Shown here piece after piece: positions 58,615 through 58,645 of a stretch of 64,000 nt of DNA (the first letter of the stretch is position 1; each line of letters begins with the position of its first letter). Below the pieces are notes generated by a model, which saw nothing but the letters and a program-made list of their open reading frames with translations, had not been told where the DNA came from and did no database searches. Where the stretch lies: the NCBI RefSeq assembly GCF_024223415.1, contig NZ_CP100500.1. One strand, 5' to 3'. A program made the position numbers and the translations under genes. Source of the DNA: Escherichia coli. GTDB lineage: Bacteria > Pseudomonadota > Gammaproteobacteria > Enterobacterales > Enterobacteriaceae.

Positions 58615-58645
58615 TGGAAAAAATGCCCGCTATGCCAAGCGGGCA
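58615..58645 (-). terminator. orphan intrinsic terminator (minus strand) with no annotated gene upstream
   Basis: Minus-strand hairpin tgcccgc-ttggcata-gcgggca followed by TTTTTT. Confidence 0.55.

Follow-up and report, generated by a model that had tools for sequence, protein, structure and literature searches.

Why does a hairpin built like an intrinsic terminator lie between ileY and ypjC of E. coli, on the strand where no gene precedes it? We addressed this question in a 64,000-nt stretch of E. coli DNA (contig NZ_CP100500.1 of assembly GCF_024223415.1), hereafter the window, whose coordinates convert to those of K-12 as 2844193 minus the window coordinate. The hairpin lies in the ileY–ypjC spacer, with the ypjCB ORF (59182-60555) on one side and ileY, followed by the 750-aa ygaQ ORF (55544-57796), on the other. 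The tRNA-Ile2 gene ileY (58356..58431, plus strand), a second gene for the tRNA reading the rare AUA codon, was found by ARAGORN and is annotated in RefSeq; with its CAT anticodon it is called Met by the former and tRNA-Ile by the latter. It converges on the RNA proposed below. Both ygaQ (750 aa) and ypjCB (457 aa) are intact in the window; both are pseudogenes or split in K-12, and ygaQ has an internal stop in EDL933. The sole genome identical to the window over 58300-59250 is that of O78 strain 3, whose ypjCB carries an ISVsa5 insertion.

A hairpin with the build of a minus-strand intrinsic terminator

Read on the minus strand, positions 58645..58624 form the hairpin TGCCCGCT-TGGCAT-AGCGGGCA, in which the arms (58645..58638 and 58631..58624) make eight pairs, six of them G-C, around a loop of 6 nt (58637..58632). 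A tract of six U residues (58618..58623) follows directly 3′ of the stem; in plus-strand sequence this tract is an A6 linker. The hairpin folds at −15.8 kcal/mol (z = −4.3 relative to shuffles). On the plus strand it is followed by AAAUUGCUU, which contains no U-tract, so that the structure has the build of a terminator in the minus direction only. The sequence-only reading had described a 7-bp GC-rich hairpin with six U residues, which is this structure minus its closing U-A pair. Its remark that no minus-strand gene lies upstream is borne out: minus-strand ORFs within 58646-59181 do not exceed 43 aa, and nothing is annotated there in K-12 MG1655, EDL933 or the other RefSeq records inspected. 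The spacer, which had been called AT-rich, is so at 58650-58750 (28-35% GC) and 58950-59200 (24-30%) but not at 58400-58650 (45-50%); GC content is 43-46% at 58750-58950, and the overall range is 24-50%.

Loose consensus terminators are not enriched around the hairpin, as a scan of 4 kb gave three sites with 2.3 expected, which is not above chance. We also scanned the whole 64-kb window for perfect stems of 7 bp or more with at least five G-C pairs, a loop of 3-8 nt and at least five T among the next seven bases. This stringent scan returned five distinct sites, one of which is the ileY–ypjC hairpin, compared with 0.18 in composition-matched shuffles. Among the other four, the terminator of the MicA sRNA, identified by its Rfam match, serves as a positive control, and two more directly follow ORFs that we take to be emrR and csiR; known transcript ends thus account for at least three. 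Given these sites and the excess over shuffles, the stringent class to which the hairpin belongs is otherwise made of real terminators. The hairpin therefore shows what is expected of intrinsic terminators, namely a GC-rich stem with a short loop, a U run immediately after the stem and a frequency above chance. The window also contains two Rfam matches above the gathering threshold, the MicA sRNA (29314-29385) and naRNA4 (CssrE; 35983-36060), both on the minus strand.

The hairpin and the adjacent 40 nt are nearly invariant in E. coli and E. albertii

We next consider how widely this sequence is distributed. Of 5426 complete E. coli genomes, 3089 (~57%) carry a single copy of the 151-nt segment 58590-58740, at 95% identity or more in every carrier, always on the chromosome and never annotated. 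The segment travels with ygaQ and ileY. It also occurs in E. albertii, to which metagenome scanning and a YkgO look-up led and whose YgaQ protein identified the species. The gene order in E. albertii is smpB-(ssrA)-ykgR-ykgM-ykgO-(ykgL-like)-module-ileY-ygaQ-csiD, where the module is a conserved non-coding stretch (58529..58753, strand unassigned), the sole part of the sequence downstream of ileY that aligns between the two species.

Conservation between E. coli and E. albertii is uneven along the locus. The ileY gene is identical at 73 of 76 positions, and the spacer between ileY and 58529 is unalignable. Inside the module, identity is 75/87 for a long hairpin (58529-58615), 69/70 for the terminator together with the adjoining body of the proposed RNA (58616-58685), 10/15 for the promoter spacer (58686-58700) and 43/55 for the upstream part (58701-58753). 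The neighboring ygaQ is ~67% identical in DNA and 60% in protein. The U6 tract is unchanged, and 58638-58685 is free of any substitution, in all aligned sequences of both species. Judged by these alignments, 58616-58685 is the most constrained 70 nt of the neighborhood, tighter than the tRNA. Within E. coli, nucleotide diversity among 16 haplotypes was 0.0077 in 58535-58700 and 0.045-0.082 in the flanks, which include the start of the ypjCB coding sequence. A set of 52 haplotypes gave the same picture, with the limit that it was fished with a 20-mer from 58650-58669 and that this stretch is thereby ascertained. Conservation across strains, which the sequence-only reading had named as a check, supports the hairpin: it is nearly unchanged in the aligned E. 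coli and E. albertii sequences, with a C/T polymorphism at 58628. These results show that the terminator motif is no random occurrence and that strong constraint acts on the 70 nt in both species; the hairpin is real and constrained, with the build of a minus-strand intrinsic terminator.

Homology between the two species stops at 58753. To the right of this point E. coli has ypjCB-pinH-ypjA and CP4-57-type DNA, and E. albertii has ykgL-ykgO-ykgM-ykgR; in K-12, the ykgR-ykgM-ykgO/ykgL genes are located at 0.31 Mb (310000-316000). A link of the module to ykgL was dismissed: a diverged ykgL-like sequence follows the module in E. albertii, and the ykgL region of K-12 has no similarity to the module. 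An inverted repeat, CTCACT-GATGATG-AGTGAG (58759-58779), lies just past the module; it varies among strains and is not in E. albertii.

Several other identities for the module were considered and discarded. It is single-copy in every genome, and scans of viral and metagenomic sequences led only to the orthologous loci of E. coli and E. albertii, which does not fit a repeat or mobile element. A phage or plasmid origin was rejected as well, as there was no phage match and the three 'plasmid' matches were mislabelled chromosomes. An exact 23-mer of the module was absent from the GTDB species representatives except for one MAG contig, which aligns to the window at 96% and is likely E. coli contamination. 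The Rfam 15 covariance models, run over 57000-61000 with E values up to 1, found tRNA only, with no match of the module at the gathering score, and the module sequence does not occur in the searchable literature. The sRNA Esr41/EcOnc14, which we had presumed to be a candidate, is encoded elsewhere, on SpLE1.

The ileY gene itself varies. Its acceptor-stem pair 6-67 (58361/58422) is U·G in the window; K-12 and most E. coli have U-A and E. albertii has C-G, which on comparison reads as a compensatory double change with the window holding the wobble intermediate. Other strains differ at position 58383 and across 58397-58399 in the anticodon arm. Several E. coli strains match the window only from the middle of the tRNA onward (58385-58431); they retain no more of ileY than its 3′ 46-47 nt, and this remnant adjoins a 438-aa ORF resembling a P4-type integrase (L017 2780-4399). 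It looks as if an island had inserted in ileY and left the module detached from the complete tRNA gene and the tRNA promoter.

Promoter-like elements coincide with the edge of the constrained stretch

Upstream of the terminator on the minus strand lies an AU-rich stretch of 40 nt, GGCUUUAUCGUUAAUUACUUAAUUCCACAUGUAAGCAAUU (58646..58685), which is weakly structured and ends with AAUUU just before the hairpin. A −10-like hexamer, GATAAT (58691..58696, minus strand), is conserved between the two species; it predicts a +1 at ~58685/58684 and an RNA of 68 nt. The invariant stretch extends from two bases past the U-run (58616) to 58685, and its upper edge is located 6-7 nt below GATAAT. Four positions that differ between the species (58686, 58687, 58689 and 58690) lie below the hexamer and above the predicted +1, where a discriminator would be. 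The limits of the constrained stretch thus agree with the predicted +1 and 3′ end.

The −35 element of the conserved GATAAT is poor; the scan of E. albertii reports ATTACA-18-GATAAT. The best σ70-like match in 57000-61000 (10/12) is TTAACC-16-TATAAT (58701..58728, minus strand), present in the window lineage and K-12, which predicts a +1 at ~58694 and an RNA of 77 nt. Its TATAAT is lineage-specific, being CATGAT in other E. coli lineages (L005/L006-type) and TACAAA in E. albertii. The scan gave 13 promoter-like sites with 16 expected, which is not above chance in AT-rich DNA. The promoter-like region is bracketed by a 10-bp inverted repeat, AGTAATTAAC (58667-58676) and GTTAATTACT (58724-58733), of which nine of ten bases are kept in E. 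albertii, and these two sequences could form a candidate operator pair.

We propose that the hairpin is the terminator of an unannotated sRNA gene on the minus strand, to which we assign a probability of roughly 0.4. Transcription would start at ~58685 from the conserved GATAAT or, as an alternative in the window lineage, at ~58694 from TTAACC-16-TATAAT, and would stop in the U-run at ~58618 by Rho-independent termination to yield an RNA of 68-77 nt. In the product, a largely unpaired AU-rich body of ~40 nt would lead through a U-rich stretch into a GC-rich hairpin that ends in a U6 tail, which is the build of an Hfq-type base-pairing sRNA. Folding of the predicted RNA leaves the body mostly unpaired and ends in the 3′ module AAUUU, hairpin and U6. 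A U-rich stretch followed by a terminator hairpin and a U tail reportedly constitutes the Hfq-binding module of sRNAs. As expected of a seed, 58646-58685 is both weakly structured and invariant in the two species. Within the window, complementarity of the candidate RNA to other sites was limited to two 11-mers, not beyond chance. Production of the RNA, binding to Hfq and a regulatory role are what the layout and the conservation would imply. Of the two options offered by the sequence-only reading, a small RNA or the relic of a lost gene, the comparative data favor the small RNA, since both the terminator and the ~67 nt preceding it hardly vary in the two species. The start had been sought near the ypjC-like promoter; it is likely to be 68-77 nt above the 3′ end and not ~450 nt away.

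Published transcriptome and binding data

We searched published datasets for transcripts from the spacer. In the accessible part of the K-12 Term-seq data, which lists ~1000 dominant 3′ ends per condition, none was found at 27854xx-27855xx on either strand, and the mature ileY end was the only one at the locus. No match at the locus was found in the accessible portions of the Cappable-seq, SMRT-Cappable-seq and EDL933 TSS supplements, and tables of sRNAs predicted from RIL-seq contain no entry for ileY or ypjC. According to the accessible part of DirectRNA-seq data with and without bicyclomycin, a Rho termination region lies 28 nt past ileY, upstream of the module, and the reads over the 800 nt downstream of ileY increased from 30 to 218 with the drug. 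This increase indicates that plus-strand read-through across the module exists and is limited by Rho. By genomic SELEX, the σ70 holoenzyme and H-NS bind the ileY–ypjC spacer, and that study assigns the σ70 site to the ypjC promoter. The negative results on expression in K-12 are weak, because this strain has an H-NS-bound spacer and a weakened allele of the terminator stem.

An allele that weakens the minus-strand stem

This allele concerns position 58628, which is polymorphic inside the stem. With C, as in the window, the stem is perfect; with T, the pair becomes a C·A mismatch on the minus strand and G·U on the plus strand. The predicted stability on the minus strand is −15.8 kcal/mol with C versus −9.6 kcal/mol with T, and that on the plus strand is −15.4 kcal/mol with C versus −13.2 kcal/mol with T. 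An allele-specific search found C in 1043 of the ~3089 carrier genomes and T in about two thirds, including K-12, O157 strain 350 and many others. C is probably the ancestral allele, as every E. albertii sequence and the most divergent lineage of E. coli have it.

A mutation within the same stem has been recorded in the laboratory. During experimental evolution of K-12, G>A at 2,785,563 reached a frequency of 19% in one gallium-selected population (PMC6928379). This position corresponds to 58630, where the change is C>T on the window plus strand. It may have arisen by chance or hitch-hiking.

A long hairpin with plus-strand asymmetry adjoins the terminator

The A6/U6 run is adjoined on its other side by an imperfect hairpin of 86 nt with 32 pairs (58530..58615), which pairs better on the plus strand and whose structure is retained in both species. 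It folds at −36.6 kcal/mol on the plus strand and −23.8 kcal/mol on the minus strand (−37.3 and −34.6 kcal/mol in E. albertii). In every E. coli sequence, 5-11 of the plus-strand pairs are G·U, and these become C·A mismatches on the minus strand. Across the aligned sequences, 98.2% of the cells are paired on the plus strand, with 12 pairs varying on one side and none on both. By a hand count, ~14 transitions at paired sites keep the plus-strand pairing versus one that keeps the minus-strand pairing. This pattern suggests selection on a plus-strand RNA, in the sense of ileY, for the long hairpin.

Part of the G·U asymmetry could be mutational, given the C>T bias of the leading strand and the templated 'correction' of palindromes. 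Inferred from the K-12 coordinates, the plus strand of the window would be the leading-strand sequence on this replichore. In the E. albertii strain L095 (CP117650.1), the equivalent of 58585-58592 reads ACTGAAACATCAG instead of ACTCATCCGTCAG, which turns that part of the long hairpin into a perfect palindrome. A multi-base change of this type is of the kind made by template switching within quasi-palindromes. In the sRNA model, the long hairpin would be a separate plus-strand element, which may limit read-through from ileY into the antisense of the sRNA gene.

Alternative explanations for the conserved module

The asymmetry raises the alternative that the functional molecule is a plus-strand trailer or read-through RNA of ileY, consisting of two stem-loops joined by A6, with the U-run being incidental. 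The more stable plus-strand fold, the G·U pairs found in every E. coli sequence and the excess of transitions that keep plus-strand pairing all argue for such an RNA, as does the retention of G·U on the plus strand only by both the T allele at 58628 and the laboratory mutation at 58630; moreover, the Rho-limited transcription past ileY seen in the accessible DirectRNA-seq data would supply it. This RNA would nevertheless end without a terminator, as the hairpin is followed by AAAUUGCUU and none is found on the plus strand in 57000-61000, and its most conserved part (58646-58685) would lie outside both stems. The spacer joining the tRNA to the module cannot be aligned between the species, and the module is intact in strains where the island in ileY cuts it off from the tRNA promoter. 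The leading-strand bias could yield part of the asymmetry, and the templated change in one E. albertii strain is a mutational rather than a selective event. We regard a plus-strand product as doubtful, albeit worth serious consideration. A narrower version, a 3′ external transcribed spacer RNA of the tRNA, was rejected in view of the missing plus-strand U-tract and terminator, the Rho stop 28 nt past ileY and the unconserved spacer. Rather unlikely in our judgement is a boundary terminator without a product of its own, which would halt minus-strand read-through coming out of the variable ssrA–ileY interval before it runs antisense over ileY into ygaQ, which lies downstream on the same minus strand. 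It would suit the end of species homology at 58753, with different genes to the right in E. coli and E. albertii, and the ykgM-ykgO operon of E. albertii, which points at the hairpin from ~370 nt. For this purpose, however, a hairpin and a U-run suffice, which leaves the invariant 40 nt and their edge at a −10-like hexamer unexplained; no minus-strand gene of E. coli lies within 2 kb upstream, and ykgO of E. albertii has its own palindromic hairpin right after the stop codon.

A DNA-level element, in which the quasi-palindromes act as a single-stranded or cruciform site for recombination, integration or replication, offers no reason for either the invariant, non-palindromic 40 nt or the U-run. 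In its favor, the module coincides exactly with the conserved/variable junction (58753), G·T tolerance falls on the strand inferred to be single-stranded as the lagging-strand template, E. albertii L095 has the palindrome-templated change, and ileY itself serves as the integration site of the P4-type integrase island. Yet the att core of that island is the 3′ end of the tRNA and not the module, which is single-copy in every genome and has no phage, plasmid or viral relatives but E. coli chromosomal segments, and we consider such an element improbable. A functionless relic, the terminator of a lost gene, is very improbable in our estimation. It is true that the islet is decaying in many strains, with ygaQ and ypjCB being pseudogenes in K-12 and others, that the stem-weakening T allele is common and that the accessible transcript data contain no known product. 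A relic should, however, decay like its surroundings, and 58616-58685 is more conserved than the adjoining tRNA, the flanks being 51-86% identical or unalignable: identity is 69/70 next to a YgaQ protein with only 60%, diversity within E. coli is 6-10 times below that of the flanks, and no sampled strain or species has a gene in that position. The relic option of the sequence-only reading is disfavored on this ground. Finally, a plus-strand ORF of 41 codons (58542-58667) spans both hairpins. The same start and stop are open in E. albertii, a gene is called in TW07627 and KF1, and three of four E. coli polymorphisms are synonymous. Between the species, on the other hand, nine codons differ non-synonymously and two synonymously, conservation continues for 18 nt beyond the stop codon, and the long stem encloses the start codon, whose Shine-Dalgarno match is poor. 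The related database entries of 109 aa translate through the tRNA gene and are spurious, and this substitution pattern together with such entries led us to reject a small protein, which is hardly credible. Such spurious calls, listed in public databases as 'conserved hypothetical protein' with lengths reaching 109 aa (e.g. B7LDM3), cover 58313-58667 and run from ileY into the module. A type I toxin-antitoxin locus was discarded too, as the sole conserved ORF (41 aa) is not hydrophobic and shows the same nine non-synonymous versus two synonymous differences.

Implications and comparison with known systems

If the minus-strand sRNA is made, it would be an unannotated sRNA and an added regulator at a locus also present in the well-studied K-12, and it would support the combination of an orphan strong terminator and local conservation as a cheap finder of sRNA genes. 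Should no such RNA be made, the module would still call for an explanation, as a strongly constrained island amid fast-evolving DNA silenced by H-NS. The two elements of the module might also work together: a minus-strand Hfq-type sRNA (58685..58618) and the plus-strand 86-nt hairpin (58530-58615) meet head-on and could constitute a tRNA-linked sense/antisense switch, an idea that we consider unlikely and put forward as speculation. Read-through from ileY would then match the sRNA perfectly in antisense and serve as its sponge or interference partner, and the long hairpin and Rho would set the amount of read-through. If real, the switch would have been conserved across both species and overlooked in K-12.

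Among known systems, the location recalls the tRNA-trailer RNAs of the 3′ETS-leuZ type, which are said to derive from the sequence downstream of a tRNA. The module is likewise a conserved, structured, non-coding stretch below a tRNA gene, into which plus-strand read-through exists. The 3′ETS of leuZ, however, ends at an intrinsic terminator on the tRNA strand, whereas the ileY module has its U-tract on the other strand, Rho terminates transcription past ileY at a point upstream of the module, and the linking sequence is unconserved. Like boundary terminators at island edges, the hairpin stands at the junction between a conserved part (ygaQ-ileY-module) and a variable part and is oriented against transcription leaving the variable region, but conservation of the module extends well past the hairpin and U-run, with the boundaries of a transcription unit.

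The candidate resembles the genes of MicA-like Hfq-dependent sRNAs, which are stand-alone intergenic genes of ~70 nt whose RNA begins with a weakly paired, AU-rich body and continues through a U-rich stretch into a GC-rich terminator hairpin with a U tail. It differs from them in that it is known from sequence alone and has no Rfam family, in that it is accessory (~57% of E. coli plus E. albertii) and not core, and in that its promoter is weak or lineage-specific and most carriers have the stem-weakening allele. As in these genes, conservation peaks from the +1, here a predicted one, to the end of the U-run, and the MicA terminator of the window belongs to the same stringent class as the ileY–ypjC hairpin. 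The candidate sRNA, which has no previous annotation, is thus a credible one of a known kind.
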